From the NCBI GenBank assembly GCA_050008655.1, contig JBEKMF010000001.1, forward strand, positions 1,445 through 65,444: DNA of 64,000 nt, given 5' to 3'. Positions 12,891 to 40,184 of the stretch are shown piece after piece (position 1 is the first letter of the stretch; each line of letters opens with the position of its first letter). A program made the translations under genes and the position numbers. The stretch is from Smithellaceae bacterium. GTDB lineage: Bacteria; Desulfobacterota; Syntrophia; Syntrophales; Smithellaceae. The notes under the pieces are model-generated. The model was given only the letters and a program-made list of their open reading frames with translations, had not been told where the DNA came from and did not search any database.

Positions 12891-14918
12891 CTATCCAATC
12901 CTGACCCACCGGGAGGCGGCAAGGGATGTCAAATTCGATATCGTTCCCAGAATGCGGCGTTGTTCCGGAAGCAGGTTCTTAAACTCATATTTTATGCCGA
13001 CTACACCGATCGTCTCCTCCTGGGATTTGATGGGCAGAAAACTATAGGGGATACTCGGCAGAGTCTCAGTTCCGGCACCGGAAATTTCTCCGTGAGAAAA
13101 CGACCAATGGGCAACGGCCAGATCATTTTGATTAATTTCCAAATCCGGACTGCTTCTTGACCATAGCTGCAGATCGCCTCCCTTTGCCTTGAACAGGACA
13201 AAACAAGGAACGTTGATAACCTTCTGAACATATTTGACGGTAAGATTGCTTATGTCGTTAAGAATCGTTGTTCGTAAAAAGGCCAGCGTGTTCATCGTTT
13301 CCTGAGAAAAAGTAGCCAGTCCTTCCACCAGCTGTTCGAGAGGGGGAAGAATCAAAAATTCCTTGCTCATCTCTTCGATCAGGACAACCCTCTCCAGCCT
13401 TAGTTGCAGGGCGACATTCTGTTTTTTCACAACCTTTACCAACTGCCCGACAATAATTGCAGTAAAAAGAAAAACCAGTAGGTTGATTATTTCCTTGGGA
13501 TCATTCATCGAAAAGCTGTATTTGGGCGCGGTAAAGAAAAAATCAAAAGTTAAAAGACTAAAGATCGAAGTAAATATTGACGGCCATACACCAAACAACA
13601 AGGCACTAACAATTGTAGCAATTAAATAGATATAAACTAACGAAGACGGATCAACAAAGTTCTGAAGAACAGCGTTAACCATAGTGATAATTGCAATCAT
13701 ACCCAGTGTCATTAAGTAATCGGATAACTTAAACGCTACTTGCCGATGAGGAGGACTGGGTTCTTTTTCTTTTTTTCCCACTGTCGGAGTAATGAGATGA
13801 AGTTCAAAATCACTCGAGGCATAAAGGAGACGGGAAGCAGGTGATCTTTTAAAAAATTCAATAATAGGCGAACGCAGCGGCTTACCGATCACGATCTGTG
13901 TAATATTGTTCTCCCGGGCAAAACGAATAATTTCATCGGCAATATCGTCGCCGGTAAGCGTCATGATTTTTGCTCCCAGCTCTTCCGCGAGATTCAGCGC
14001 TTCCGTTAAATAAACTTTTGCCTTACCCGAGGGCTCCGTTAAGCCACTGGATAAAACATAGACTGCATACCATTCGGCGTGCGCATCCTTAGCGATCGAA
14101 TAGGCTTTGCGTATTAATTGTTTGGCATAGGGGCTGGCAGCAATGCAGACAACAACTTTTTCCGCGGTAGGCCAGGGGCCGGGAATTGCTTTTGCCCTCA
14201 TATAATTGATCAGCTCGCTATCCATCTTGCGAGCTACAAGGGTTAACATTAGTTCGCGCAGGGCAAATAAATTGCCCCGCTGGAAAAAGTTATCTATAGC
14301 ATGGAGAGCCTGCTCGGGAATATAAACCTTGCCCTCCTTTAACCTCTGCGTCAGCTCTTCCCACGGAATGTCGATTACCTGGACCTCGTTGGCCAGGTCA
14401 AAAAACGTGTCCGGCAATGTTTCCAGCATACGGACAGAGGTGATTTTAGCAACGGCGTCGTTCATGCTTTCAAAGTGCTGGATATTGACCGTGGTGTGAA
14501 CATCAATTCCTTGTTCCAGTAATTCCTCAATATCCTGATAACGCTTCGGATGGCGGCTACCCTCGACATTAGTGTGGGCAAGTTCATCCACCAGAACAAC
14601 GGCGGGATGCCTCGTAAGAACGGCATCCAGATCCATTTCTCCGATGGAAATACCCTTATAATTAATCATCTTCCGGGGTATTACTTCCAGGCCGGCAAGA
14701 AGCAATTCCGTATCGGCGCGCTTGTGTGTTTCGACAATACCCACGACGACATCTATCCCGCGTTTCTTCAACACATGGGCATCATTGAGCATCGCATAGG
14801 TTTTACCGACACCAGGAGCGTAGCCGAGAAATATTTTTAATCTTCCCTTCCGAACATCTTCTTTTTCGACTTCTTTCAAAAGGGCATCGGGATCAGGTCT
14901 TAATTTTTTCTCTTCCAT
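12891..14918 (-). CDS. kdpD: KdpD-like sensor lacking the histidine kinase (DHp/CA) domains
   Basis: KdpD N-terminal domain with Walker A (GYAPGVGKTYAM), a USP-like domain, four TM segments and a GAF-like C-terminal region. The protein ends at 675 aa with no H-box or N/G1/G2 boxes. Confidence 0.85.
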   Translation of the reverse strand: MEEKKLRPDPDALLKEVEKEDVRKGRLKIFLGYAPGVGKTYAMLNDAHVLKKRGIDVVVGIVETHKRADTELLLAGLEVIPRKMINYKGISIGEMDLDAVLTRHPAVVLVDELAHTNVEGSRHPKRYQDIEELLEQGIDVHTTVNIQHFESMNDAVAKITSVRMLETLPDTFFDLANEVQVIDIPWEELTQRLKEGKVYIPEQALHAIDNFFQRGNLFALRELMLTLVARKMDSELINYMRAKAIPGPWPTAEKVVVCIAASPYAKQLIRKAYSIAKDAHAEWYAVYVLSSGLTEPSGKAKVYLTEALNLAEELGAKIMTLTGDDIADEIIRFARENNITQIVIGKPLRSPIIEFFKRSPASRLLYASSDFELHLITPTVGKKEKEPSPPHRQVAFKLSDYLMTLGMIAIITMVNAVLQNFVDPSSLVYIYLIATIVSALLFGVWPSIFTSIFSLLTFDFFFTAPKYSFSMNDPKEIINLLVFLFTAIIVGQLVKVVKKQNVALQLRLERVVLIEEMSKEFLILPPLEQLVEGLATFSQETMNTLAFLRTTILNDISNLTVKYVQKVINVPCFVLFKAKGGDLQLWSRSSPDLEINQNDLAVAHWSFSHGEISGAGTETLPSIPYSFLPIKSQEETIGVVGIKYEFKNLLPEQRRILGTISNLTSLAASRWVRIG

Positions 14919-14946: not shown

Positions 14947-15525
14947 TTACTGCTTAGTTTTAAAGTTATCAAGCGCAATGTTTAGATTCAGCACATGCAC
15001 CCTCTCTTTTCCCCAAATTCCCCAAAAAGGTTTTTCCGTGTTTTGCTGAACGATTTTCTCAATTACGGATTGGGAAATGTTCCTTTCCCTGGCAATACGC
15101 GGCACCTGAAGCAGGGCAGCTTCCGTGCTGATATGCGGATCAAGCCCGGAGGCCGATGCTAAAACCAGATCGGCGGGAATCGATGCATTCTCAGGCAATC
15201 TATTTTCTCGGCGAACCTGCTCAATGCGCGTCCGGACTTGCTCTAACAGCTTGGCGCTGGAAGGCGCCAGATTACTACCGCCGGTATTGCTCGCATCATA
15301 GGGAGGGTCTGTGGCCGACGGGCGGCCGTGAAAGTACTCGGGGCGAGTGAATAATTGTCCGATAAGCTGCGATCCGATGATGACATCGCCGTTTTTAATT
15401 ATGTTGGCATTGGATTGCCGGGGGAATATGGCTTGTGATGCCACCGTAATCACGAGCGGATAAACCAAGCCGCAAATAAGAGATAATCCTGCAAATACCA
15501 AAACAGCACGTTTTAGCTGCTTCAT
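14947..15525 (-). CDS. kdpC: K+-transporting ATPase subunit C
   Basis: 192 aa with an N-terminal TM segment and motifs FHGRPSA and SGLDPHIS. Confidence 0.9.
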   Translation of the reverse strand: MKQLKRAVLVFAGLSLICGLVYPLVITVASQAIFPRQSNANIIKNGDVIIGSQLIGQLFTRPEYFHGRPSATDPPYDASNTGGSNLAPSSAKLLEQVRTRIEQVRRENRLPENASIPADLVLASASGLDPHISTEAALLQVPRIARERNISQSVIEKIVQQNTEKPFWGIWGKERVHVLNLNIALDNFKTKQ

Positions 15526-15536
15526 TGGCGCCTCCT

Positions 15537-17573
15537 TTACACTAGCCTCAATACCGATAATAACATATCGATAAGTTTTATGCCGATAAAAGGCAAGATC
15601 AATCCCCCTATTCCGTAAATCAATAGATTTCGGCGCAGTAAAGCCGATGCGCTGGAAGGATTGTAATGAACACCGCGCAGTGCCAGAGGAATCAAGAGCG
15701 GAATGATGATAGCGTTAAAAATCACCGCCGACAGAACCGCGCTCTGAGGACTGGCCAGATGCATGATATCGAGTATCCGTAACTGAGGATACCCCAGAAT
15801 AAAGATCGCCGGAATGATGGCAAAATATTTAGCGACATCATTAGCAACACTGAAAGTCGTCAACGCCCCGCGGGTAATGAGAATCTGTTTGCCGATTTCA
15901 ACAAGGTCGAGAAGCTTGGTCGGGTTGGAATCGAGATCAACGATGTTGGCCGCTTCTCGGGCTGCCTGCGTGCCGGCATTCATCGCCACGGCCACATCGG
16001 CCTGAGCCAAGGCCGGCGCATCGTTGGTTCCGTCACCGATCATCGCCACCAGATGTCCCATCCCTTGATATCTACGAATGAGTTCCAATTTTGTTACCGG
16101 TCTGGCCTGGGCAACAAAATCATCCACTCCGGCCTCAGCGGCAATGGTAGCCGCCGTTAAGGGATTGTCTCCGGTAATCATAATCGACTTAATCCCCATC
16201 TGCCGCAGTTTGGCAATACGGCCGCTGATGCCTTCTTTGAGAACGTCCTTGAGCCGGATTACGCCGAGGATTTCCCCGTCCTCGGCAACCAAAAGAGGCG
16301 TCGAACCTTCAGTGGAAATATTGGTTACTATTTTTTCAACATCCTCTGCTATGGGCACCCCTTTGACCGCTACAAAATCTTTGATAGCATCCAGAGCTCC
16401 TTTTCTTATCCGGTGGCCGCTCCAGTCAATACCGCTCATCCGCGTCTCCGCACTAAAAGGGGAAAAAACAGCTCCCTCCGGGGCGCGAATATCACTGCCG
16501 CGTATTCCCAGTTTTTCTTTAGCCAAAACAACAATGCTTCTGCCTTCGGGTGTATCGTCGGCAAGCGATGATAAAAGCGCTGCATTGATCAGGTCGGTTT
16601 CTTTTTTCTTATCCAGAGGAACAAATTCTGTCGCCATCCTATTGCCCAGCGTTATCGTGCCGGTTTTATCCATGAGCACAATATCAACATCTCCGGAAGC
16701 TTCCACGGCACGGCCGCTCATCGCTATAAAATTATACTGGAGCAACCTATCCATGCCCGCAATTCCTATGGCCGGCAATAATCCTCCGATAGTGGTGGGC
16801 ATCAGACACACCAGCAGAGCAATCAGCGTCGCCACGGCAACACTAACGCCCATGTAAGCGGCAAAATATTTTAAGGTCACGACAACAACAATGAAGAGGA
16901 CCGTGAGCGCAATTAAAAGCATATTCAGCGCCCGCTCATTGGGAGTCTTCTGTCTTTTGGCGCCCTCGACCATATGAATCATTTGATCGAGGAAGCTTTC
17001 GCCGGGATTGGCGGTAATGCGAACTTTTATTTTCCCCGAAAGCACTCGCGTTCCTCCGGTCACGCCGCTGCGGTCGCCGCCGCATTCTCTGATGACGGGT
17101 GCGGATTCTCCGGTTATGGCCGATTCATCAATAAGCGCGGTCCCCACGGCGACCTCACCGTCTCCGGGAATAGTGTCGCCGTCTTCCAGAAGGACCATGT
17201 CATCTTTTTTCAACTGCAAAGCGGATATTGTTTCCGTGCTGCCGTCATTCAATAATCGTTTAGCTACAGCTTCCGAACGGTTCTTTTTGAGAGAATCGGC
17301 TTGCGCCCGTCCCTGGCCTTCGGCCAGGGCTTCAGCAAAATTGGCAAATATTACAGTAAACCACAACCAGAGAGTGATCTGCAAATCAAAGGCGATACTG
17401 CTGCCGGTAAATATATCATGCAGAACTATGAACGAAGTTACGATGGTAACCATCTCTACAATGAACATCACCGGACTTTGAATCATTCTCACCGGATTTA
17501 GTTTTATGAGCGAATCTTTCAGCGCCGGTAAAATAAACTTCGTCTGCCAGATATTAATTTTTTTCGATTTCAT
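15537..17573 (-). CDS. kdpB: K+-transporting P-type ATPase subunit B
   Basis: DKTGTIT phosphorylation motif, TGDN and [10 protein letters not shown]; 678 aa. Confidence 0.95.
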
Positions 17574-17584
17574 TTTCCTTTACC

Positions 17585-19291
17585 TCAAAACGTTTTGCCG
17601 ATCGCCAGGAGCAGATGTTCCAGAAACGGCCCCAAAGTGAACACCGGGAAATATGTCAGCGCGCCGACAACAATGATTACACTGACCAGCATGACAATAA
17701 AAAGAATACTTGTCGTGGGAAAAGTCGCTACACTTGTCGGAACAATTTTCTTGCCCGCCAGAGCGCCGGCAATCGCCAAAGCCGGAATGATTGTGGAAAA
17801 CCTGCCGACCAGCATGGCCAAAGAAGTAGTAAGATTGTAGAAAATTGTGTTGGCATTTAGTCCGGCAAAGGCAGAGCCGTTATTGCCGGTGGTAGAGGCA
17901 TAAGCATAAATAATTTCGGATAACCCATGCGGCCCGGCATTCCCGAGGCTCGCAAGGCCTAGCGCCGTAGAAATGGCGAGGCTCGATAAGATGAGCAGTA
18001 AAATAGCCGGCGAAAGAATAATCACTACCGCCATAACCATTTCAAAGAGTTCCAGCTTTTTGCCGATTAGCTCCGGAGTCCGGCCGATCATCAATCCGGC
18101 GAGAAACATAGTGATAATGGCATAACCGAGCATGCCGATGAGACCGGTGCCCACGCCGCCGAAGATGACTTCACCAATGGCCATGTTAAACATGAGAACC
18201 AGCCCGCCGAGCGGCATCATACTATCGTGCATGCTGTTGACGGCTCCGCAGGAGGTAACAGTTGTGGACTGAGCAAATAAAACAGAATTGACCACTCCGA
18301 ATCTTACTTCCTTACCTTCCATGTTTATCCCGCTGGCAACTCCTGCTTTTTCCAGTAAGGGATTCCCCCGCGTTTCCGCCCAGGCAAAAAGGCTAAGGCC
18401 CGCAAGATAGAGAATCATCATCGCGGCAAATATTGCCAATCCCTGACGCCGTTTTTTCAACATCGCTCCCAGAGTAAAAGGCAAAGCCGCCGCAATTAAA
18501 AGAAGCCCCAGCACTTCCAAAAAATCAGTCAGCGGTGTCGGGCTCTCGAAGGGATGGGCGGAATTGGCGTTAAAGAATCCGCCTCCATTGGTGCCGATCT
18601 GCTTGATTGCTACCTGGGAAGCCACAGGACCGACAGCAATAACCTGTTTACTTCCTTCCAATGTCTGCGCCTGGACAGAGGGACTCAAAGTTTGAACTGC
18701 TCCCTGCGAAACCAGAAGAATTGACCATATAATCACCAGCGGCAGCAACACATATAAAACACAGCGGGTGAGATCAACCCAGAAGTTGCCGATCGCTGCT
18801 GCTGATTTACGGATGAACCCTCTGATTAAGGCAATGACGGCAACAATGCCAATGGCCGCGGAAGAAAAGTTTTGGAAAGTAAGGCCTAACATCTGGGTCA
18901 AGTAACTCATGGTTTGTTCTCCGCTGTAGGCCTGCCAGTTGGTGTTGGTACCGAAAGAGATAGCGGTATTGAGAGCAGTATCCCAGCGCACAGCGCCGAA
19001 TTTCTGCGGATTGAATGGAAGTATTCCCTGAATAAGCTGCAGAAAGAATAATGCCGCTATGCCGATTACATTAAATACAACCAGAGAGAGGGCATAAGTT
19101 TTCCAGGACATTTCTTCTCCCACATCAACTCTGAACAGCCGATAAAGAAGTCTTTCCACAGGAGCAACAATAGGCGCGAGAAATGAACGCTCGCCGCTGA
19201 ACACCCGAGCCATGTATTCTCCCAAAGGAAAAGCCAATAGCGTTAAGATTAACGGAAATAACGTAATGCATAACCAGTCATTCGTTGTCAT
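17585..19291 (-). CDS. kdpA: K+-transporting ATPase subunit A
   Basis: 568 aa polytopic protein with KdpA selectivity-filter-like motifs (NTNWQAYSGE, GTNGGGFF, TSCGAVNSMHDS, NNGSAFAG). Confidence 0.95.
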   Translation of the reverse strand: MTTNDWLCITLFPLILTLLAFPLGEYMARVFSGERSFLAPIVAPVERLLYRLFRVDVGEEMSWKTYALSLVVFNVIGIAALFFLQLIQGILPFNPQKFGAVRWDTALNTAISFGTNTNWQAYSGEQTMSYLTQMLGLTFQNFSSAAIGIVAVIALIRGFIRKSAAAIGNFWVDLTRCVLYVLLPLVIIWSILLVSQGAVQTLSPSVQAQTLEGSKQVIAVGPVASQVAIKQIGTNGGGFFNANSAHPFESPTPLTDFLEVLGLLLIAAALPFTLGAMLKKRRQGLAIFAAMMILYLAGLSLFAWAETRGNPLLEKAGVASGINMEGKEVRFGVVNSVLFAQSTTVTSCGAVNSMHDSMMPLGGLVLMFNMAIGEVIFGGVGTGLIGMLGYAIITMFLAGLMIGRTPELIGKKLELFEMVMAVVIILSPAILLLILSSLAISTALGLASLGNAGPHGLSEIIYAYASTTGNNGSAFAGLNANTIFYNLTTSLAMLVGRFSTIIPALAIAGALAGKKIVPTSVATFPTTSILFIVMLVSVIIVVGALTYFPVFTLGPFLEHLLLAIGKTF

Positions 19292-19530
19292 TTCAACCTC
19301 CTTTTGTTTTCCCCATTCTCCAACGTATCAAAAAATAACGAAACAACACGGCCAATCAAGCCCTGGAGTGCCATGGATAAAAATTAAAACAATCATGAAG
19401 CGTTTGATAAGAAGACAAATCAATAAAAATCATTGGAAAGCTAAAGACAAGCGGGCACAGTGATTCCCCATTTTCAGCAAAAGACAATCGCCGTAGAAGA
19501 ATTGATGAAAAAAGAACAGTCATTTTTTTA

Positions 19531-19660
19531 TCCTCCCATACGCCGACGAGGTTAGCTGACGGGCTCGGACATGGAAGTGTCCTCTTCTTCACTCGCTAAG
19601 AAATTCGCCCCAAACTACCCGGTTCCCCCGTATCCACACTATATATGGATTTAGGCATTG
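19531..19660 (-). promoter_or_regulatory. c-di-AMP riboswitch-like leader (ydaO/kimA class) upstream of the kdp operon
   Basis: The minus strand reads CCUAAAUCC...GGAUACGGGGGAACCGGGUAGUUUGGGGCGAAUU...CCGAGCCCGUCAGCUAACCUCGUCGGCGUAUGGGAGG. This matches, from memory, the pseudo-twofold ydaO core blocks (ACGGxGGAACC, UUGGGGUxAAUC, ACCCGxCAGCUAACxxCGxxGGC). An SD (GGGAGG) follows directly. Confidence 0.65.
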
Positions 19661-19958
19661 TTAAAAAACATTGTCGAGCTAGCTATGCCCTTTTTAAATG
19701 ACTGTCAAGCAATATTTGCCATACATTTTTGTATTATTTCTTCATCCTTTTTGAGTAAAAGGGAGGAATTCAATCCGTAATAAACACAATTGAAGTTCTT
19801 CGCGTCAAGCCACTGAGAATCTTCGATTCTTAGGGGGCCATATTAGTCGGTATTCACTCGCTTACCCGCAGCAAGCTACAGGGAATGCGCTTGCTGTCGA
19901 ATTCACACCCGGCAACAAACATCGACACTACACCCCATATTTTGCGGTCAATATTCCA

Positions 19959-19987
19959 TTGACACACAAGATTGCTCTTAGTATACT
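19959..19987 (+). promoter_or_regulatory. sigma-70-type promoter for the 20045 gene
   Basis: TTGACA (19959-19964), a 17-nt spacer, then TATACT (19982-19987), about 58 nt upstream of the start codon. Confidence 0.45.
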
Positions 19988-20044
19988 TCTAAACCGAAAA
20001 AGAAAATTCTTATCAATCAATTTAGTCTTCAATAGGAATTTCTG

Positions 20045-20980
20045 ATGATTAAGCCCGACAAAGAAGACGTTGCTTGGATGGCTGTCGGAGCAGTAATACT
20101 GCTGCTGATCCTCCTGGTTGTGTTTCATTTCTACCAAAAACAGAATCCCGCCGAACAATTGGCCTTCAAAGCGAGCCGAGTTGACTTAGTAAATCGGATG
20201 CGCTTAGCCTTGGCTTCAGCTTCAGAAGCGGAAAAGAGCACAGTCCTTGCCATCACCGACCAAGACTCGCGATCATTTGCGGGCCAGAGCAGAACGGCCA
20301 CGGCAGAAGTCGAACAGGAACGTCGGGAGTTGAGTGAACTCCTGAAAGCTGGCGGCACCCAAGACGAGAAGGAGTTATTTAACCAATTCTCTGAACTTTT
20401 CGCTGAGTTCCAGCACATCGATACCAATTTACTAAATCTGGCAGTCAAGAACACCAACATCAAGGCGTATAGTCTGGCGTTTGGACCGGCCGCTGCTACA
20501 CTCAATGAAATGGACGCCGCGCTATCCCGCTTAATTGCATCAAATATTGGCTCTCCAGAGGATAGACAGGTGATGTTCCTTGCTTACCGCACAGAGATCA
20601 GCGCCCTGCGCCTTCAAACTTTGATTCCACCACACATTGCGGAGGAAAGCGATCAGAAAATGGATGAATTGGAAGCCCTAATGTCCAAGGAAGACAAGCA
20701 GATTCGTAAGAATCTGGATGAACTGACTGCGCTTCCAAAATTAAACCACAATGCCGATCTGACAGAGGCGGTATCAAGCTATGCCAGGTTCAACAAAATC
20801 AAAACCAAAATTCTGGCACTTTCGCGGGAAAACACCAACGTGAAGTCGCTGTCCATTTCCCTTAATCAGAAGCGCAAGATGATGCTCCTGTGTCAGGATA
20901 CCTTGAACAAGCTGCAACAAGCTATCTTAGAGGAACCCATTGCGGGAGTCACCTATGGCCGTCCGGCCAGACCCCGCTAG
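20045..20980 (+). CDS. membrane-anchored helical protein, 4HB_MCP-like sensory module without an output domain (hypothetical)
   Basis: One N-terminal TM segment, then about 280 aa of Ala/Leu/Glu-rich helices resembling the periplasmic four-helix-bundle of chemoreceptors. No HAMP or signalling domain. Confidence 0.35.
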   Translation: MIKPDKEDVAWMAVGAVILLLILLVVFHFYQKQNPAEQLAFKASRVDLVNRMRLALASASEAEKSTVLAITDQDSRSFAGQSRTATAEVEQERRELSELLKAGGTQDEKELFNQFSELFAEFQHIDTNLLNLAVKNTNIKAYSLAFGPAAATLNEMDAALSRLIASNIGSPEDRQVMFLAYRTEISALRLQTLIPPHIAEESDQKMDELEALMSKEDKQIRKNLDELTALPKLNHNADLTEAVSSYARFNKIKTKILALSRENTNVKSLSISLNQKRKMMLLCQDTLNKLQQAILEEPIAGVTYGRPARPR

Positions 20981-34465: not shown

Positions 34466-36838
34466 ATGAACGACGCAAACCGCACCCGCTCTTCCAAGGG
34501 GCTTCTGTTCGGTCTGTTCGCCATCGCCACGGGCGCCGTGGTACTTGTAGGTTGGCTGTTTGACATCCCCAGCCTGAAGAGTGTACTGCCGGGGTTCGTG
34601 ACCATGAAGGCCAACACCGCCGTGGGCTTCGTACTCGCGGGGTTGTCGCTGGCGCTGTTGGGATGCGCGGCCCGCTTTGTGTGGGTGCGGCAGTTGTCGC
34701 GAGTGTGCGCGTGCGCCACGGCGCTGCTGGGCCTCCTCACCCTCAGTCAGTATCTCTTCGGCGTGGACTTCGGCATTGACCAACTGCTCTTCCGAGAAGC
34801 GGCTGGCGCCGTGGGTACGCTGTCCTCAGGCCGCATGGCCCCCGTGACAGCGGTCAATTTCCTCCTGTTGGGTTGCGCGCTCTTCCCCGCAGGCTTCCGC
34901 CGTACCATCCCCGCCGCGCAACGTCTGGTCCTAGTTACGGGACTCATGGGTATGCTGTCTCTGATGGGGTACGCATACGGCGCAACTGAGCTTTTTGGCA
35001 TCGGCACCTACACGCAGATGGCCATCCACACGGCCGTGCTCTTTATCCTCCTGAGCCTGGGGGTGCTGTTACTGCATCCGGCGGACGGCTTTATGCGAAC
35101 AGTCACCAGCGATACCGTTGGCGGCTGGCTACTGCGGCGTTTGGCGCCGTTCGTAGTGGGGATTCCGCTGGTCCTCGGGTGGTTGAGGGTGCAGGGCGAA
35201 CAGAGGGGCATCTTCAATGGTCCATTTGGCGTGGCCTTAATGATGATGGTCATGATGCTCATTCTGACGGGCCTGATCTGGTGGACAGCCCATGCACTGA
35301 ACCGGCTCGGCACCGTCCGCCGGCAAGAAGATGCAGCCCGCGAATACGCCGAGAGCATCATCAACACCGTACGTGAACCCTTAATTGCTCTGGATCAAGA
35401 TTTAAGGGTAGTCACGGTCAGCCGCTCCTTCTATGAAGTCTTTAAGGTTAAACCTGAAGAGACCGTGGGACAGCTTATTTATGACCTGGGCAATAAACAG
35501 TGGGATATTCCCAAGCTGCGCGAACTGCTGGAAACCGTCCTTCCCCAAAAGGCGACTTTTGATAATTATGAGGTGGAACACGATTTTGCGACCATCGGCA
35601 GGCGCATAATGCTTTTGAATGCCCGGCAAATTAAAAGAGTATTGGGAAAAGAACGGATCATCCTCCTGGCCATCGAGGATATAACCGAGCGCAGGGAGAT
35701 AGAAATTGGGCTAGAAAAGACCCGAAAAGAACTGGAGATTATTAAAAAAACCGCAGATGAAGCCAGTGAATTCGCCGAGAGCATCATCAACACCGTGCGT
35801 GAACCTTTAATTTCTTTGGATCAAGACCTCAGGGTGGTCACGGTCAGTCGCTCCTTCTATGAAGTCTTTAAGGTAAAACCTGAAGAGACCGTGGGACAAC
35901 TTATTTATGACCTGGGCAATAAACAGTGGGATATCCCCAAGCTGCGGGAACTGCTGGAAACCATCCTTCCCCAAAAGGCAACCTTTGATAACTATGAAGT
36001 GGAACACGATTTTGCAACCATTGGCAGGCGCATAATGCTTTTGAATGCCCGGCAAATTCAAAGAGTATTGGGAAAAGAACGGATCATCCTTCTGGCCATC
36101 GAGGACATCACCGAGAAAAAGATGCTGGAAAGAGGGGTGGTGAAGGCAAGGGATGTTGCTGAAGCTGCCAACAAGGAACTGGAGACATTCAGCTATTCTG
36201 TTTCCCATGATTTACGGGCGCCGCTGCGGGGCATAGACGGATTCAGCCAGGCGCTCCTGGATGATTATAGCGACAAACTTGATGCCACGGGGAAAAATTA
36301 CCTGGAGCGCATCCGCGCGGGTACACAGCGCATGGGATTGCTGATCGATGATATGCTGAAACTTTCGCGGATAACCCGGGCTGAATTTAACTATGAATCC
36401 ATCGACTTGAGTAAAATGGTCCGGACAATTGCAGATGCATTTCAGAAAAATAATCCTGATAAGACCCGCAAGGTGACCATCCAGAAGGGTCTCATCATCC
36501 AAGGTGACTCTCACTCCATGCAGATTGCTTTGATGAACCTGATAGATAATGCCTGGAAGTTCACCGGCAAACAAAAACATGCCCGGATTGAATTCGGCAC
36601 GACTCTCCAGGAGGGGAAAATGGTCTTTTTTGTTCGAGATAACGGCGTCGGATTTGACATGTCCTATGTGGGCAAACTATTCGGCGCGTTCCAGCGTCTT
36701 CATACGATGGATGAATTTGCGGGAACGGGAATAGGCCTGGCAACTGTACAGCGAATCATCCACCGTCACGGGGGGAAAATCTGGGCGGAGGGCGAAGTTG
36801 GGAAAGGGGCAACCTTCTTCTTCACGCTGCCAGCGTGA
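34466..36838 (+). CDS. sensor histidine kinase: multi-TM N-domain, 2 x PAS, HisKA, HATPase_c
   Basis: About 290 aa of hydrophobic N-domain, two near-identical PAS modules, H-box (SYSVSHDLRAPLR), N box (DNAWKF), G1 (DNGVGF) and G2 (GTGIGLA). Confidence 0.9.
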   Translation: MNDANRTRSSKGLLFGLFAIATGAVVLVGWLFDIPSLKSVLPGFVTMKANTAVGFVLAGLSLALLGCAARFVWVRQLSRVCACATALLGLLTLSQYLFGVDFGIDQLLFREAAGAVGTLSSGRMAPVTAVNFLLLGCALFPAGFRRTIPAAQRLVLVTGLMGMLSLMGYAYGATELFGIGTYTQMAIHTAVLFILLSLGVLLLHPADGFMRTVTSDTVGGWLLRRLAPFVVGIPLVLGWLRVQGEQRGIFNGPFGVALMMMVMMLILTGLIWWTAHALNRLGTVRRQEDAAREYAESIINTVREPLIALDQDLRVVTVSRSFYEVFKVKPEETVGQLIYDLGNKQWDIPKLRELLETVLPQKATFDNYEVEHDFATIGRRIMLLNARQIKRVLGKERIILLAIEDITERREIEIGLEKTRKELEIIKKTADEASEFAESIINTVREPLISLDQDLRVVTVSRSFYEVFKVKPEETVGQLIYDLGNKQWDIPKLRELLETILPQKATFDNYEVEHDFATIGRRIMLLNARQIQRVLGKERIILLAIEDITEKKMLERGVVKARDVAEAANKELETFSYSVSHDLRAPLRGIDGFSQALLDDYSDKLDATGKNYLERIRAGTQRMGLLIDDMLKLSRITRAEFNYESIDLSKMVRTIADAFQKNNPDKTRKVTIQKGLIIQGDSHSMQIALMNLIDNAWKFTGKQKHARIEFGTTLQEGKMVFFVRDNGVGFDMSYVGKLFGAFQRLHTMDEFAGTGIGLATVQRIIHRHGGKIWAEGEVGKGATFFFTLPA
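35348..36115 (+). repeat. in-frame tandem duplication of a PAS module (2 x 342 nt, period 426 nt)
   Basis: 35348-35689 and 35774-36115 differ at about 24 of 342 positions by hand alignment. Most differences are third-codon-position changes, with only 4 amino-acid changes. Confidence 0.9.
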
Positions 36839-36895
36839 AGAAGCGTATCTCGTAATTCGTGAATGGTATCTCGCATATAGAGAAGCGATTGAATT
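36820..36895 (+). promoter_or_regulatory. structured junction element J1 (CTTCACGCT/AGCGTGAAG hairpin spanning the kinase stop codon, plus 2 x CGTGAA..GTATCTCG)
   Basis: A 9-bp perfect hairpin at 36820-36840 includes the kinase TGA. It is followed by AAGCGTATCTCG-taatt-CGTGAATGGTATCTCGC. Confidence 0.7.
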
Positions 36896-37270
36896 ATGGA
36901 AAAGGAAAACGGTAAGATAAAAAATTTCAGAGATCTGGATGTGCGGAAACTAGGTATGGAAATAGTCTTCGATTTTTATAAATATACAAAATCATTCCCC
37001 AAAGAAGAAGTATACGGTTTGGTAAGTCAAATGAGAAGAGCGGCTTTGTCGATTGCTTCCAATATCGCCGAAGGATTCAACCGTTACCATAATAAAGAGT
37101 ATCGTCAATTTTTATATGTTGCTCTCGGATCATGCGCCGAACTGGAAACGCAAATCGAGGTTAGTTTGCTTTTGGGATATATTACGCAATCCGCAAGATA
37201 TAAAATAATTGAGAAACTCGATTATGAATCGCGGATGTTGAGAAACTTGATAAAGCGCCTGAATGCGTAA
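36896..37270 (+). CDS. four-helix-bundle protein (23S rRNA intervening-sequence protein / Avd family)
   Basis: 124 aa with the family pattern F.DL.V...........Y....FPKEE.YGL.SQ.RRAA.SI.SNIAEG..R....E...FL..A.GS..E..T. Confidence 0.85.
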   Translation: MEKENGKIKNFRDLDVRKLGMEIVFDFYKYTKSFPKEEVYGLVSQMRRAALSIASNIAEGFNRYHNKEYRQFLYVALGSCAELETQIEVSLLLGYITQSARYKIIEKLDYESRMLRNLIKRLNA

Positions 37271-37333
37271 AGTGCGCCTCGTAGCTCGCGCTTCACGTTT
37301 CACGCTTCACGAAACACGAAAGGAGTTTTTATC
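37271..37333 (+). promoter_or_regulatory. structured junction element J2 (heptad array CTTCACG-TTTCACG-CTTCACG-AAACACG plus RBS)
   Basis: Only the right-arm polarity of the CGTGAAGCG/CGCTTCACG element is present. The 3' end (ACGAAAGGAGTTTTTATCATG) parallels J3 and J4 (ACAAAAGGAATTTATAATG). Confidence 0.7.
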
Positions 37334-37777
37334 ATGGATAACAGAATTATTTTGCTGGTGGAGGATAATCCCGATGATGTCGAGTTGACTCTAAGGGCAT
37401 TCAAGAAAAACGATATCTCCAATAAGGTGATCGTGGCCAAAGACGGTGTGGAAGCATTAGATTACCTTTTTGGAAAGGGAATGTATGCAGGACGGGAAAT
37501 AAATGATCTGCCCGTAGTTACCCTGCTGGATTTGAAACTCCCCAAAATAAGCGGCCTGGAGGTGCTGAAGGCCATCCGCCAAAATGAGTTCACCAAACTA
37601 CTGCCGGTGGTCATCCTCACGTCTTCAATGCATGAACGGGACGTGGTCAACGGGTATAAACTGGGCGTTAATAGTTATGTCCGCAAACCGGTTGACTTTA
37701 AAGAGTTTGTGGAAGCTATCAAATTTCTAGGCCTGTACTGGCTGGTCTGGAATCAACCTCCTCCTTTGGGAAAGTAA
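37334..37777 (+). CDS. single-domain response regulator (CheY-like receiver)
   Basis: Motifs ILLVEDNPDD, LLDLKLPK (phospho-acceptor Asp), ILTSS and KPV. Confidence 0.9.
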   Translation: MDNRIILLVEDNPDDVELTLRAFKKNDISNKVIVAKDGVEALDYLFGKGMYAGREINDLPVVTLLDLKLPKISGLEVLKAIRQNEFTKLLPVVILTSSMHERDVVNGYKLGVNSYVRKPVDFKEFVEAIKFLGLYWLVWNQPPPLGK

Positions 37778-37852
37778 TTCGTGAAGCGTTGTTCGTGAAG
37801 CGTATCTCGCTCTTCACGCTTCACGAGATGCGAGATACAAAAGGAATTTATA
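37778..37852 (+). promoter_or_regulatory. structured leader element J3
   Basis: 2 x CGTGAAGCG, GTATCTCGC, CTTCACGCTTCACG, CGAGAT-GCGAGATAC, then AAAAGGAATTTATAATG. There are several mutually exclusive 6-9 bp pairings. Confidence 0.75.
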
Positions 37853-40099
37853 ATGGCAAAAAAAGTTTTATCTGCACCAAGCAAGCTGAAACCTAAAATT
37901 AGCAAGCCGCAATTACTCCGGGTATTGGTAGTTGAAGATTCGGAAGACGATGCTCTGCTGATAATTCGTGAACTGAAAAAAGGCGGTTACAATCCGGTGT
38001 ATGAACGGATGGAAACAGCACCAGCGATGAAAAAAGCCCTCAGCCAGAAGCCCTGGGACATCATCCTTTGCGATTATAAACTGCCGAAATTCAATGCGCC
38101 CTCAGCCATTACCGTATTAAAAGAAACAAATATCGACATCCCTCTCATCATTGTATCCGGCACTATCGGTGAAGAGACGGCTGTAGAGTGTATGCGCTCG
38201 GGCGCCAAAGATTATGTCATGAAGAGTAACTTATCGCGTCTGTGCCCCGCCATTAAAAGAGAATTAGAAGAGGCAAAAACAAGAGTCCAACGCAAGCGGG
38301 CAGAAGAGGCGCTGCAGGTGAGCGAGGAGAAATATCGTGCCATTATTGAGAACATGCAGGAGGGTTATTTTGAACTTGACCTTGCCGGTAATTTTACCTT
38401 CGTTAATGACGCTGAGTGTATAAATCTGAGATATCCTCGAGAAGAACTGATCGGAATGAACAACAGGCAGTATCAAGATGAAACAAACGCTCAAAAAATG
38501 TATCAACTCTTCAGAGAGCTTTACAGAACAGGTGAACCGGTTAAGGCATTAGATGTTGAAATTATCAGAAAAAACGGGACGAAAGGTTTTAACGAAATTT
38601 CTGTATCTCTTGTCCGGGATGCAGAAGGTAAACCGATCGGATTTTGGGGTGTTTCTCGGGATGTCACCGAGCGCAAGCAGGCCGAGCAGGCGCTACGAGA
38701 GAGCGAAGCCCAGTATCGGCTGCTGGCCGACAACATGCAAGACCAAGTATGGCTCATGGACCTGAACTTAAAACCGACATACATCAGCCCATCTGTTGAG
38801 AAGATACGGGGATACACATTTGAAGAGATTGCGCAACTTCCGCTGGATAAGCAACTCACGGCAACATCCTTACAGTCGGCGATGGAGTTTTTCTCCATTG
38901 AGATGCCCAAGGCGCTGGCAGATCCAACCTATTTCGCGCTTCCACTGGAACTAGAGTTCTACTGTAAAGACGGCTCAACTCTATGGGTGGAAAGCACGTT
39001 TAGTCAAGTCCGGGACGAAAATGGTAAGCCGTTATCCCTACTGGGCGTCGGTAGAGACATCACCGAGCGCAAGCGAACGGAGGAAGCACTGCATAAAAGC
39101 GAACATCTACATAGAGTTATCACAAATAACATTCGGGACACCGTAGCGCTGCTGGACATTAATTTTCGCGCAACATGGATCAATCCGTCAGTAACCAAAA
39201 CACTAGGATTTACTCTGGACGAACTTGCCCAAGTCCCTCTGGAGCGGCAAGTAACGCCGGATTCTATGCAGCGTATGCAGGATCTCATGCTGGAGCATCT
39301 TACAGCAGAAAATTTGACCGATAAAAACAAGGAACTTAATGTCACCGGCGAGTTTGAATTTTACCGGAAAAACGGCGATATTTTCTGGGATGAGATGAAT
39401 ATATCGCTTCTGCGGGATACAGATGGAAAGCCCACCGGCTTTCTGACGGTAGGCCGCGACATCACCGAACGCAAACGAGCGGAGGAAGAACGTAAGCAGA
39501 GCTTTGAGCGGATGAGAAAAGCTCTGAGAGCCACGGTTCAAGCCATCTCTCTGACTGTGGAAATGAAAGATCCCTATACTTCGGGTCATCAACGGCGAGT
39601 ATCCGATCTGGCCCGGGCGATAGCGACAGAAATGGGCTTATCGGCAGACCGGCGGGACTTTATCCGCACTGCCGCCACTATTCATGACATCGGTAAAATA
39701 GCCATTCCATCGGAGATACTCAGTAAACCGACAAAACTGACTGATCTGGAATTCAGTTTGATTAAAACACACGCCCAGGCAGGCTATGATATCCTGAAAG
39801 ATATCGAATTTCCCTGGCCCGTGGCCGATGTCGTCCTTCAGCATCATGAACGGATGGATGGATCCGGCTATCCTCAGGGCCTCAAGGGAGCTAATATTCT
39901 TCTGGAGGCACGGATTCTGGCCATCGCCGACGTTGTGGAAGCCATCGCTTCCCACCGTCCCTATCGTCCGGCATTTGGAATTGATATTGCCTTGAAGGAG
40001 ATTTCCGATAATAAGGGTATCCTTTATGATGCAGTTGCCGTGGATGCCTGTCTGAAATTATTTCGAGAGAAAGGCTACGGCTTGGTTTTAAAAAAGTAG
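37853..40099 (+). CDS. response regulator with REC, about 4 PAS domains and an HD-GYP (c-di-GMP phosphodiesterase-type) domain
   Basis: REC (VVEDSEDD, LCDYKLPK), repeated PAS-end signatures (GVSRDVTERK, GVGRDITERK), and HD-GYP motifs (HDIGKI, HHERMDGSGYPQGL). Confidence 0.9.
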   Translation: MAKKVLSAPSKLKPKISKPQLLRVLVVEDSEDDALLIIRELKKGGYNPVYERMETAPAMKKALSQKPWDIILCDYKLPKFNAPSAITVLKETNIDIPLIIVSGTIGEETAVECMRSGAKDYVMKSNLSRLCPAIKRELEEAKTRVQRKRAEEALQVSEEKYRAIIENMQEGYFELDLAGNFTFVNDAECINLRYPREELIGMNNRQYQDETNAQKMYQLFRELYRTGEPVKALDVEIIRKNGTKGFNEISVSLVRDAEGKPIGFWGVSRDVTERKQAEQALRESEAQYRLLADNMQDQVWLMDLNLKPTYISPSVEKIRGYTFEEIAQLPLDKQLTATSLQSAMEFFSIEMPKALADPTYFALPLELEFYCKDGSTLWVESTFSQVRDENGKPLSLLGVGRDITERKRTEEALHKSEHLHRVITNNIRDTVALLDINFRATWINPSVTKTLGFTLDELAQVPLERQVTPDSMQRMQDLMLEHLTAENLTDKNKELNVTGEFEFYRKNGDIFWDEMNISLLRDTDGKPTGFLTVGRDITERKRAEEERKQSFERMRKALRATVQAISLTVEMKDPYTSGHQRRVSDLARAIATEMGLSADRRDFIRTAATIHDIGKIAIPSEILSKPTKLTDLEFSLIKTHAQAGYDILKDIEFPWPVADVVLQHHERMDGSGYPQGLKGANILLEARILAIADVVEAIASHRPYRPAFGIDIALKEISDNKGILYDAVAVDACLKLFREKGYGLVLKK

Positions 40100-40184
40100 C
40101 TGACGGTGGCCGGTGAAGCGTCGTTCGTGAAGCGTATCTTGTGCTTCACGCTTTACAAGATGTTAGATACAAAAGGAATTTATA
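40100..40184 (+). promoter_or_regulatory. structured leader element J4 (paralogous to J3)
   Basis: GGTGAAGCG-tcgtt-CGTGAAGCG-TATCTTG-tg-CTTCACG-cttta-CAAGAT-GTTAGATAC-AAAAGGAATTTATAATG. It carries a compensatory change relative to J3 (TCTCG/CGAGA becomes TCTTG/CAAGA). Confidence 0.75.

Follow-up and report, generated by a model that had tools for sequence, protein, structure and literature searches.

A c-di-AMP riboswitch in the kdp leader of a Syntrophia bacterium, with a pseudoknot strand that overlaps a leader-ORF Shine-Dalgarno sequence

Introduction

The closest described system is the kdpFABC operon of Bacillus thuringiensis BMB171, which has a c-di-AMP riboswitch and a truncated KdpD and lacks a KdpDE relay (Wang et al. 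2019, PMC6488665). According to the same study, a kdp riboswitch and KdpDE exclude each other; its survey found the kdp riboswitch arrangement in Bacillales only (PMC6488665). In Corynebacterium glutamicum, reporter data suggested that nlpC's c-di-AMP riboswitch acts on translation without a terminator (PMC9960051). The N-terminal Walker A/B module of KdpD is a serine kinase for S162 of KdpB, and KdpD versions without the histidine kinase act only post-translationally (PMC11018627). Long KdpD proteins truncated for DHp and CA occur in Campylobacterota and Archaea, where transcriptional control may be superfluous (PMC11018627).

Here we analysed a 64-kb stretch of DNA (the window), in which a c-di-AMP riboswitch had been predicted in front of a kdp operon (the original prediction). 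The host is a Smithella/Syntrophaceae-like syntrophic bacterium of the phylum Thermodesulfobacteriota, class Syntrophia. Since a kdp riboswitch with a truncated KdpD has already been published for B. thuringiensis (PMC6488665), of the Bacillus cereus group, the novelty is smaller than the original prediction implied: the locus is a further member, from a new phylum, possibly with a variant expression platform.

Results and discussion

The aptamer in the kdp leader

The original prediction proposed a search with Rfam family RF00379. In cmscan, RF00379 matched 19667..19526 on the minus strand. The score was 89.5 bits (E 1.3e-19), the gathering score being 38, and the alignment ran untruncated over the full model (positions 1-134). 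The match thus exceeds the threshold by a wide margin and is far beyond chance, and no second Rfam family reached its gathering score in the whole 64-kb window. The aptamer lies in the 5' leader of kdpABC, a K+ transport context as expected for RF00379. Its parts are as follows.

19526..19667, minus strand: c-di-AMP riboswitch aptamer (Rfam RF00379 match)
19540..19544, minus strand: 3' strand of P1, GGCGU, pairing with AUGCC at 19658-19654 (cmscan structure line and sequence)
19571..19577, minus strand: 5' strand of the pseudoknot, loop CUUCCAU, complementary to the tail AUGGGAG
19533..19539, minus strand: 3' strand of the pseudoknot, AUGGGAG, overlapping the Shine-Dalgarno (SD) sequence GGGAGG (19537-19532) of the leader ORF

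On inspection, the blocks CCUAAAUCC...GGAUACGGGGGAACC, UUGGGGCGAAU and CCGAGCCCGUCAGCUAACCUCGUCGGC, which the original prediction had quoted together with the P1 pairing AUGCC/GGCGU, were all found on the minus strand where it had placed them. The conserved core CGGGGGA.CC, GGGGNGAAU and CCCGUCAGCUAACCUCG is complete in the window aptamer, with high posterior probability against the consensus, and the core blocks are invariant in 15 aligned relatives and in the 8 leaders of alignment A1. When 15 related leaders were folded de novo by RNAalifold, 28 pairs were predicted in the Rfam arrangement, 7 of them with double, pair-keeping (compensatory) changes, and the P1 pairs were retained in 15/15 relatives. 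With the pseudoknot also present, the helices thus fold in the architecture of the class, as had been anticipated. P1 to P7, the core blocks and the loop-tail pseudoknot are shared with ydaO/kimA and ktrAB of Bacillus subtilis and with the crystallised ydaO (PDB 4QLM), and here as in B. subtilis the regulated gene serves K+ uptake. Judged from its sequence and covariation, this is a true c-di-AMP riboswitch of the well-known ydaO class, of which it is an unexceptional representative, and as such it is predicted to bind two c-di-AMP per aptamer.

We gathered 21 distinct clade leaders by protein search, contig look-ups and a metagenome pattern scan; alignment A1 consists of 8 leaders and the RNAalifold aptamer set of 15 related leaders. 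An exact look-up of the window KdpA returned no record, and homologues with 83-93% identity were found by protein search in Smithella/Syntrophaceae and metagenomes. The layout of riboswitch, kdpABC and kdpD without the histidine kinase was present in 9/9 Smithella/Syntrophaceae-clade contigs scanned with Rfam, with RF00379 at 77-86 bits and 139-354 nt upstream of kdpA. A pattern search of 80 GTDB species-representative loci found no riboswitch before kdpA, nor did Rfam on 9 of them; the KdpA of these loci was at most 67% identical among the matches listed, and they are unfit for leader comparison. These findings extend c-di-AMP riboswitch control of Kdp beyond Bacillales to syntrophic Thermodesulfobacteriota, and the metagenome matches suggest several further host lineages.

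Two elements that may act as the promoter of the riboswitch leader, as read from their sequence, lie upstream of the aptamer.

19703..19708, minus strand: TTGACA, -35-like hexamer, invariant in 8/8 aligned leaders
19680..19685, minus strand: TAGCTA, weak -10-like element; T36, A37 and G38 do not vary within alignment A1

TTGACA and the TAG-containing -10-like element are 17 nt apart. A consensus promoter scan did not call this site, because the -10 element is weak.

The pseudoknot strand and the leader ORF

The loop CUUCCAU is closed by the hairpin GGAC (19582-19579)/GUCC (19570-19567), and when the RNA is folded, the 7-bp pseudoknot that it forms with the tail takes in five of the six nucleotides of the SD. 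An equivalent pairing is found in the crystallised ydaO construct 4QLM (sequence from PMC5393176). Because the loop core TTCC was preset by the search pattern, the flanking pair alone is informative for covariation. The base just 3' of CUUCC and the one just 5' of GGRAG do covary: among 82 scored loop and tail combinations the pair is Watson-Crick in 61 (A:U 41, G:C 17, U:A 3), a count reached by 0 of 10000 permutations. The original prediction had taken GGGAGG for a Shine-Dalgarno sequence that directly follows the aptamer. Its reading as an SD stands, with an SD-like tract 7-12 nt before an invariant ATG in 18/18 non-deleted clade leaders, but its separateness does not: GGGAGG is part of the aptamer itself, the known pseudoknot 3' strand of the class, and it is at the same time the SD of a leader ORF.

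Two other pairings involving this region were rejected. For an extension of P1 that would hide the SD via the 5' flank, complementarity was inconsistent across leaders, as judged by eye. For an alternative pairing of the aptamer UUUCUU/GAAGAA helix with the downstream AAGAAG/UUCUUC hairpin, L087 and L091 were without matching covariation.

19356..19523, minus strand: leader ORF (uORF) of 55 codons, ATG at 19523, stop TGA at 19358-19356 (ORF scan)
19508..19529, minus strand: weak hairpin of an A-run with a U-run, surrounding the leader AUG (21 leaders folded locally)

The ATG at 19523 had been read as the kdp start. SD and ATG are both there; however, the ATG (19523-19521) sits 232 nt upstream of the kdpA start (19291) and opens the 55-codon leader ORF, for which no Pfam match was found. 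From the equivalent ATG, 19/21 clade leaders have an ORF of 42-85 codons (48 in L141), which takes up 66-100% of the spacer. In 6/21 leaders the frame closes with the TAA in TAAGGAGG, which is 10 nt from the start codon of kdpA, and thus ends exactly at the kdpA SD.

We propose that binding of two c-di-AMP would lock the fold, P1 and the pseudoknot included. With the pseudoknot locked and the SD buried, ribosomes could not start on the leader ORF. The U-rich leader of about 230 nt between aptamer and kdpA would then be left untranslated and kdpABC expression would fall, either by transcriptional polarity, via Rho or a weak hairpin and U-run at 19374-19328, or because translational coupling into kdpA is lost. 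When c-di-AMP is low, the pseudoknot would open, the leader ORF would be translated and kdp would be expressed. By analogy with known members of the class, it is most likely that the K+ pump is turned off at high c-di-AMP, that is, when K+ is plentiful; this OFF logic, translation of the uORF and its link to kdp are the steps that we infer. The explanation as a whole, in which a c-di-AMP riboswitch buries the SD of the uORF in its pseudoknot and shuts off kdp through polarity or lost coupling, seems to us reasonably probable. The translational or combined control suggested originally looks right in kind, with the amendment that it would operate via the leader ORF and not via a kdp ATG.

The SD is hidden in a ligand-stabilised pseudoknot in SAM-II and preQ1 riboswitches, and polarity that depends on leader translation operates in E. 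coli ribB FMN, Salmonella mgtA and pyrBI attenuation. The kdp leader would work in the same way if the mechanism holds, although the RNA classes and ligands differ. The C. glutamicum nlpC riboswitch likewise has no canonical terminator; however, it regulates a cell-wall peptidase and no leader ORF has been described there, and a freed CTCC-RBS pairing was proposed for it, in contrast to the pseudoknot-embedded SD that we propose here.

It is also possible, with slightly less than an even chance in our estimate, that Syntrophia and several uncultured lineages share a hitherto undescribed platform, in which the pseudoknot 3' strand is the SD of a uORF of 40-85 codons. The peptide would be irrelevant, but kdp and kimA-like K+ uptake genes would be expressed only if the uORF is translated, the link being anti-polarity or coupling. 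If such a platform is real, the aptamer's own pseudoknot strand is reused as a ribosome-binding site, a terminator-free use of the class is open to Gram-negative bacteria, and an ATG after such aptamers should not be annotated as the start of the regulated gene.

Among the alternatives, the one that survives best, unlikely as it is, is a real repressing riboswitch that works by another route, such as a direct effect of the folded aptamer on Rho loading, RNase access or RNA stability. The uORF would then be accidental, the purine-rich tail no more than the pseudoknot strand, and the ATG retained for the sake of the neighbouring hairpin. A GGRAG tail belongs to the structure of the class with or without a start codon behind it, and the rpfA riboswitch of S. 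coelicolor reportedly has neither a terminator nor Rho dependence (cited in PMC9960051). Substitutions in the leader ORF have no codon-position bias, their distribution being flat, and relatives are put into different frames by 1-nt indels. The leader peptide is thus not conserved, and selection could act on nothing but the translation itself. This region is generally poor in stops, so that open frames are quite frequent and other frames are sometimes open too: shuffle p-values for the open frame range from 0.004 to 0.25 per sequence over about nine lineages, which is weak for any single sequence, and a rough Fisher combination gives about 1e-4 if lineages are assumed independent. Moreover, in the close relatives L081 and L121 a 95-nt deletion abuts the SD on an in-frame ATG; from this spacing poor initiation should be expected, and both still keep riboswitch and operon. 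Against an accidental uORF, the ATG is invariant while its flanking nucleotides vary (leader conservation line), also across lineages whose hairpin arms change, and its distance from the SD is held at 7-12 nt. The frame stays open through 3-nt indels in some relatives and, as mentioned above, runs exactly to the kdpA SD in six leaders. The module of pseudoknot SD, ATG and uORF also recurs before unrelated transporter genes, namely KimA-like permeases, and before another kdp operon in other metagenome lineages, and in further lineages the position equivalent to ATG 19523 opens a long ORF, which continues for at least 390 codons, as far as the examined sequence reached.

That the uORF encodes a small conserved protein or a diverged KdpF was rejected for its lack of Pfam match and codon bias and for the frameshifting indels. 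A 28-aa ORF at 19374..19288, whose stop overlaps the kdpA ATG, was rejected as coding, since L103 has a 1-nt indel that alters the frame.

Termination, activation or decay as alternatives

According to PMC6488665 and PMC9960051, the biochemically characterised c-di-AMP riboswitches of Firmicutes all act by termination. B. thuringiensis kdp has an intrinsic terminator; in the window leader none was found, and there the pseudoknot strand is the uORF SD. B. subtilis ydaO/kimA and ktrAB likewise have a terminator platform in place of the SD and leader ORF. A transcriptional OFF switch as in Bacillus, in which an intrinsic terminator would form upon c-di-AMP binding and neither ATG nor uORF would matter, is nevertheless quite improbable at this locus. 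Textbook terminators do lie 30-45 nt past the conserved aptamer block in metagenome members of the same subtype (L118, L128, L158, L092 and others). In the window, however, the standard scan called no canonical intrinsic terminator on the minus strand at 19200-20100, which takes in the region from aptamer to kdpA. Only a lenient scan gave a hairpin plus UAUUUUUU.

19328..19374, minus strand: hairpin (19374-19338) followed by UAUUUUUUGA, weakly supported candidate attenuator (lenient scan)

The uORF stop codon sits in the loop of this hairpin. The fold has -11.4 kcal/mol with a z-score of -1.3, which is shuffle-like (22/200 shuffles were as stable), and hairpin and U-run are kept only in the closest relatives L081 and L121, and partly in L103, and are missing from most clade leaders. 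This sole candidate is 165 nt from the aptamer, a distance too great for competition with P1 or the pseudoknot. The hairpin that comes directly behind the aptamer (19508..19529) is a degenerate counterpart of the relatives' AAGAAGAA(AUG)...UUCUUCUU hairpin; in the window it is A/U-rich, has -3.6 kcal/mol and is no better than shuffles, and in several lineages a consistent U-tract is lacking. RNAalifold recovered an invariant CUC:GRG as the sole pairing in the post-aptamer region, because the alignment loses the register of the hairpins. As for Rho, a rut site is not evident in the leader, the C/G skew being at about the 95th percentile of background.

The invariant CUC:GRG pairing also bears on an ON switch, in which c-di-AMP would expose the SD and activate leader ORF and kdp. 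In nearest-neighbour folding without the pseudoknot, with the aptamer helices either enforced or open, the open aptamer pairs the SD with CCUC of the P3 3' strand, and SD accessibility is equal or higher with the helices enforced: 0.46-0.71 with P1 and P3 enforced versus 0.16-0.24 in five relatives. In the window itself, however, the two states are equal (0.13 vs 0.12), and the modelling leaves out the 7-bp pseudoknot over 5/6 SD nucleotides. Because the pseudoknot is outside such models, thermodynamic bound-versus-free folding is uninformative or misleading here. Every characterised class member is an OFF switch and high c-di-AMP means K+ sufficiency (PMC6488665, PMC5575661); to induce a high-affinity K+ pump at K+ sufficiency would make no physiological sense. 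We regard an ON switch as very unlikely.

No DisA_N/DAC domain or c-di-AMP phosphodiesterase was found in the window among ORFs of at least 150 aa, minus five opposite-strand ORFs inside larger genes; DAC genes are reported for Deltaproteobacteria in general (PMC4686210, PMC5575661). The lack of a c-di-AMP synthesis gene in the 64 kb might point to a decayed or non-functional relic, but this is scarcely credible for an aptamer that scores more than twice the gathering threshold, has all core blocks intact and is conserved with compensatory changes among relatives whose KdpA are 74-93% identical.

The kdp operon and KdpD

19297..19303, minus strand: SD of kdpA, AAGGAGG (sequence; AGGAGG is invariant in alignment A1)
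17585..19291, minus strand: kdpA, 568 aa (Pfam KdpA, E 1.3e-231)
15537..17573, minus strand: kdpB, 678 aa, P-type ATPase subunit (Pfam E1-E2_ATPase and Hydrolase; TGES with Ser157, DKTGT)
14947..15525, minus strand: kdpC, 192 aa (Pfam KdpC, E 4.3e-68)
12891..14918, minus strand: kdpD without the histidine-kinase module, 675 aa (Pfam KdpD-N, Usp, DUF4118 transmembrane region, GAF)

The operon was predicted to be kdp with a kinase-less KdpD, and this is what the domain content shows: kdpABC is followed by a KdpD in which Pfam found neither HisKA nor HATPase. The protein stops after GAF, where DHp would begin, and the end of a convergent radical-SAM gene, 157 nt downstream of kdpD, leaves no room for a kinase module. 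Neither HisKA nor HATPase was listed for KdpD at the 11 related loci retrieved, where the orthologues are intact with 674-679 aa (L081, L083, L085, L087-L091) or split or shortened (L082, L084, L086). Without the histidine-kinase module KdpD cannot signal to KdpE, and kdpE is absent from the locus. The term kinase-less is right for the histidine kinase only, as the N-terminal Walker A/B serine-kinase module is retained.

The locus resembles that of B. thuringiensis in having the same riboswitch class in the kdp leader, a KdpD unable to act as a histidine kinase, no KdpDE relay and the expected logic that high c-di-AMP turns kdp off. This supports the rule, already published, that a working KdpDE relay and a kdp riboswitch exclude each other. 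The locus differs in that KdpD is a 365-aa N-terminal fragment in B. thuringiensis, whereas here it has 675 aa with Usp, transmembrane and GAF regions; kdpF, which is present there, was not seen at the window locus, and the host belongs to Thermodesulfobacteriota.

The window KdpD resembles the serine-kinase-only KdpD (Silberberg et al. 2024, PMC11018627), with which it shares Walker A (G-x5-GKT, here G32-YAPGV-GKT40), Walker B with DE (VVLVDE112), the TGES motif of KdpB (here ITGES, with Ser157 kept) and the lack of DHp/CA, the H-box being absent. In contrast to the long form described in that study, the truncated KdpD of the window is paired with a riboswitch, and it is a counter-example to the view that DHp/CA-truncated KdpD occurs where transcriptional control is dispensable. 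From its domain content, the window KdpD probably acts only post-translationally on the pump, control of synthesis being left to the riboswitch. If this is true, Kdp control would be split between c-di-AMP acting on the RNA, for synthesis, and a K+-sensing serine kinase acting on the protein, for pump activity. The position after GKT is Tyr instead of the adenine-contacting Trp, so that serine-kinase activity is not assured.

The S. aureus-type c-di-AMP-binding motif SxS-x20-FTAxY (PMC4686210) is absent from the Usp domain of the window KdpD. Unlike S. aureus KdpD, this domain has AAS-x20-WYAVY, which corresponds to the E. coli-type RxxxR-x8-WxAVY with Ser replacing the second Arg (RxxxS-x8-WYAVY).

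A c-di-AMP riboswitch precedes the kdp operon

The aptamer upstream of the kdp operon fully belongs to the class of c-di-AMP riboswitches. When the entire 64-kb window was scanned with Rfam 15, RF00379 (ydaO/yuaA) was the sole family above its gathering score. The match, at 19667..19526 on the minus strand, reached 89.5 bits (E 1.3e-19), far beyond the gathering score of 38, and spanned model positions 1-134 of 134 untruncated. The RF00379 test that the original prediction named was thus comfortably passed. The original prediction had proposed this aptamer from short sequence blocks, every one of which was found on the minus strand at 19660-19531, as was its P1 pairing of AUGCC (19658-19654) with GGCGU (19544-19540). 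RNAalifold recovered the Rfam helices de novo from 15 aptamers, with compensatory double changes in 7 pairs. It is very likely that a functional c-di-AMP riboswitch governs kdp. In an alignment of 8 leaders, TTGACA and, 17 nt further on, TAG are both invariant immediately 5' of the aptamer; judged by sequence, this arrangement is promoter-like with a weak -10. The features discussed below are as follows.

19303-19297, minus: strong Shine-Dalgarno (SD) sequence AAGGAGG, kdpA's own
19291..17585, minus: kdpA (Pfam KdpA, E 1e-231)
17573..15537, minus: kdpB, downstream of kdpA
15525..14947, minus: kdpC, downstream of kdpB
14918..12891, minus: KdpD-like protein of 675 aa (KdpD N-terminal, Usp, transmembrane DUF4118 and GAF domains)
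37853-40099 and 40185-43883, plus: REC-PAS(n)-HD-GYP-type (HD_5) proteins, 3' of the kinase at 34466-36838

The operon encodes KdpABC and a KdpD without the histidine kinase module

No HisKA or HATPase domain was found among the Pfam domains of the 675-aa protein, and a motif search detected no H-box. Converging on kdpD, a radical-SAM/SPASM gene reaches to within 157 nt of the kdpD stop, so that no space is left for a kinase module after kdpD. No kdpF is recognizable at the operon. The KdpD N-terminal domain is a serine kinase that phosphorylates the TGES serine of KdpB and thereby inactivates it, and KdpD versions lacking DHp/CA act purely post-translationally and are found in species without KdpE (PMC11018627). 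The window's KdpD has Walker A (G32-x5-GKT40) and Walker B (VVLVDE) motifs, and its KdpB retains the TGES serine (Ser157). The proposal of c-di-AMP control of the operon in place of a KdpDE phosphorelay is reasonable from the locus, but KdpD is "kinase-less" only as regards the histidine kinase. K+ might still be sensed by the transmembrane and GAF domains that remain. The Usp motif is of the E. coli type (RxxxS-x8-WYAVY) and not the c-di-AMP-binding SxS-x20-FTAxY of S. aureus KdpD, so there is no sign of c-di-AMP acting on this KdpD as well.

Among the window's ORFs of 150 aa or longer, excluding five nested in larger opposite-strand genes, a domain scan found neither a diadenylate cyclase domain nor a recognized c-di-AMP phosphodiesterase architecture. 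A signaling cluster at 34466-43883 (plus strand) comprises a PAS-PAS-HisKA-HATPase kinase and the two large HD_5 proteins, which are probably cyclic-di-GMP phosphodiesterases unrelated to c-di-AMP. Divergently, upstream of the kdp promoter, lies a gene for a 311-aa 4HB_MCP_1 sensory-domain protein (20045-20980, plus strand), which is also the upstream neighbor in L081, a close relative, and is not found there in more distant relatives.

The arrangement is conserved among relatives

The closest named KdpA homologues, 77-85% identical, belong to Smithella sp. F21 (Smithella is in Thermodesulfobacteriota, class Syntrophia) and to Syntrophaceae and Smithellaceae MAGs; metagenome KdpA proteins are up to 93% identical. 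Seven homologues were traced to contigs, giving 11 loci, and each of the 11 has kdpA, kdpB and kdpC together with a kdpD that lacks kinase domains (674-679 aa where intact; kdp genes are split or shortened in three contigs). RF00379 was found 139-354 nt upstream of kdpA, at 77-86 bits, in all nine related loci scanned with Rfam. Scanning metagenomes for an aptamer pattern gave 81 instances, 25 of them with kdpA within 3 kb downstream; 15 of these 25 fall in the window's clade, and about 10, with KdpA only 33-54% identical, in other lineages.

In contigs labelled Methanobacteriaceae and Methanomethylovorans (L003 and L044), KdpA shares 62-64% identity with that of the window, equalling the best bacterial species representatives among the matches listed; this hints that kdp moved between syntrophs and methanogens or that binning went wrong. 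A Syntrophaceae MAG has two cobalamin riboswitches in tandem (RF00174, 118 and 96 bits; L089:14504-15012) immediately after kdpD, ahead of a gene for a TonB-dependent receptor (Plug domain).

The aptamer pseudoknot overlaps the Shine-Dalgarno sequence of a leader ORF

The SD sequence GGGAGG (19537-19532) and the ATG (19523-19521) that the original prediction placed after the aptamer are both present on the minus strand. However, GGGAGG belongs to the aptamer itself, and the ATG opens a leader ORF (uORF), not kdp; about 235 nt separate the aptamer's 3' end from the kdpA start codon. In the metagenome set, the tail that directly follows P1 on its 3' side is rich in purines (GGAAG or GGGAG) with or without a downstream start codon, and is complementary to CUUCC in the loop of a hairpin GGAC...GUCC. 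Since the search pattern fixed the loop core, only the flanking pair is informative for covariation: the nucleotide 3' of CUUCC and that 5' of GGRAG are Watson-Crick partners in 61 of 82 cases (A:U 41, G:C 17, U:A 3), a count reached by none of 10000 permutations, which ignore relatedness. Because the crystallized ydaO RNA 4QLM has the equivalent pairing, of loop CUCCUUC with tail GAAGGAG, this is the known pseudoknot of the class, which has been described as stable (PMC5393176). In the window, CUUCCAU (19577-19571) pairs with AUGGGAG (19539-19533) and takes in five of the six GGGAGG nucleotides. The pseudoknot strand thus overlaps the conserved SD-AUG.

The uORF has 55 codons, from the ATG at 19523 to a TGA at 19358-19356 (minus strand), 64 nt before the kdpA ATG. 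Across the clade its ATG is invariant amid varying neighbors, with an SD-like tract 7-12 nt 5'. In 19 of 21 distinct clade leaders assembled, the frame is open for 42-85 codons, or 66-100% of the spacer, and in 6 of the 21 the stop is the TAA within TAAGGAGG, which leaves 10 nt to the kdpA ATG. Dinucleotide shuffles gave p 0.004-0.25 per sequence for this openness; a rough Fisher estimate, taking about nine lineages as independent, gave a combined p of about 1e-4. The leader region is generally poor in stop codons, and other frames are sometimes open too. The peptide is unconserved, with substitutions spread evenly across codon positions and 1-nt and 3-nt indels among relatives, and has no Pfam match; it is therefore neither KdpF nor another conserved small protein. 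If anything, translation as such, not the peptide, would be what selection acts on.

Relatives with KdpA 93-96% identical measure 255 (L103), 207 (L133), 158 (L121) and 159 nt (L081) from the conserved aptamer block to the kdpA ATG, and the window 255 nt. In L081 (2993-3282) and L121, with KdpA 93-95% identical, a 95-nt deletion removes the hairpin around the uORF AUG and the first 29 uORF codons, fusing GGGAGG straight to an in-frame internal ATG; the ORF is kept, with poor spacing. A 28-codon ORF at 19288-19374 (minus strand), whose stop overlaps the kdpA start (ATGA), resembles a coupled upstream peptide, but it is probably non-coding because a 1-nt indel in L103 shifts its frame.

Proposed mechanism

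From the aptamer to kdpA, a standard scan called no intrinsic terminator on this strand. The hairpin around the uORF AUG is A/U-rich and, at -3.6 kcal/mol in the window, no better than shuffles; in relatives it is stronger (about 5-10 bp, mostly A-U), with an inconsistent U-tract. A lenient scan found a hairpin at 19374-19338 followed by UAUUUUUU, with the uORF stop codon inside its loop; its stability is no better than that of shuffles (z -1.3), and it is kept in the nearest relatives only. The C/G skew of the window leader reaches only about the 95th percentile of background. Nearest-neighbor modeling, which cannot represent the pseudoknot, compared "aptamer enforced" with "P1 blocked" and did not consistently show the SD occluded when the aptamer was folded.

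The riboswitch is probably an OFF switch, because all characterized members of the class are OFF switches (B. subtilis kimA and ktrAB, B. thuringiensis kdp, S. coelicolor rpfA and C. glutamicum nlpC; PMC6488665, PMC5575661, PMC10117811, PMC9960051) and c-di-AMP signals K+ sufficiency. We propose that c-di-AMP would lock P1 and the pseudoknot and bury the SD, leaving the uORF untranslated, and that kdp expression would then fall through polarity (Rho or a weak attenuator), through lost coupling into kdpA, or both. At low c-di-AMP the uORF would be translated and kdp expressed. That the uORF is the link to kdp expression has about an even chance of being correct.

The riboswitch itself will not surprise a specialist: in B. 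thuringiensis, c-di-AMP control of kdpFABC by a riboswitch, with a truncated KdpD and without KdpE, has been published, and the survey in that paper found 12 species, all Bacillales, and concluded that the riboswitch and KdpDE exclude each other (PMC6488665). According to the introduction of that paper, several phyla, Proteobacteria among them, had already been predicted by bioinformatics to have c-di-AMP riboswitches ahead of ktr, trk, kdp and kup. Our literature search found nothing linking c-di-AMP or riboswitches with Smithella or Syntrophus. Unlike the B. thuringiensis system, the window's belongs to another phylum, has a longer KdpD remnant and lacks a terminator. The proposed uORF-based platform is possibly a new element.

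Related modules in other lineages

In other metagenome lineages, the same module of SD within the pseudoknot, ATG, AAGAAG(AUG)...UUCUUC hairpin and 44-62-codon ORF precedes APC-family permeases (Pfam AA_permease_2) in contigs L099:386-2287, L124:2942-5130, L148 (minus) and L206:2342-4616. These permeases look KimA-like and have about 658 aa where complete (the L099 copy is cut by the contig end). In L124 the uORF stops within a few nt of the permease start, and in L148 a DUF4118-only protein follows the permease. In another metagenome lineage (L120:4525-9656 and L138, minus, 7165 down to 1), the same aptamer subtype and a 59-60-codon uORF precede a 565-aa fusion of KdpD N-terminal, Usp and PTS EIIA-2 domains, followed by kdpA (609 aa), kdpB and kdpC. 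In this riboswitch-controlled kdp operon, the first gene encodes a kinase-less KdpD of a different architecture.

The module also precedes a divergent kdpA in L101:7333-13262, L139 and L152. In L101, the first 60 nt past the aptamer (SD, ATG and the start of a 54-codon uORF) closely resemble those of L103 and L133, the window's nearest relatives; a 609-aa KdpA, 37% identical to the window's, lies about 820 nt further on, followed by a 339-aa KdpC with two KdpC stretches. The L101 type could be a second, divergent kdp operon sharing the regulatory cassette.

About a third of the instances instead have a classical GC-rich terminator. In 11 GC-rich metagenome contigs (L095, L105, L125, L134, L142, L164, L173, L175, L187, L201 and L207), an ORF at least 390 codons long, as far as the sequence was examined, opens with ATG/GTG 3-13 nt past the pseudoknot strand (e.g. 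CGGAAGCGCC then ATG/GTG). This suggests, from sequence, direct translational control with the pseudoknot strand as SD, though long ORFs easily arise in GC-rich DNA. In a Vicinamibacterales (Acidobacteriota) MAG (L005:13714-13858), an RF00379 match (64 bits) lies downstream of the kdp genes, not upstream of kdpA. In contig L093 (minus, 3197 down to 1), a classical terminator accompanies a c-di-AMP riboswitch; next come a 113-aa ORF with no Pfam match, the gene for a BBP2/OmpL-like beta-barrel porin, and then kdpA. This looks like a porin-containing kdp operon under this riboswitch class.
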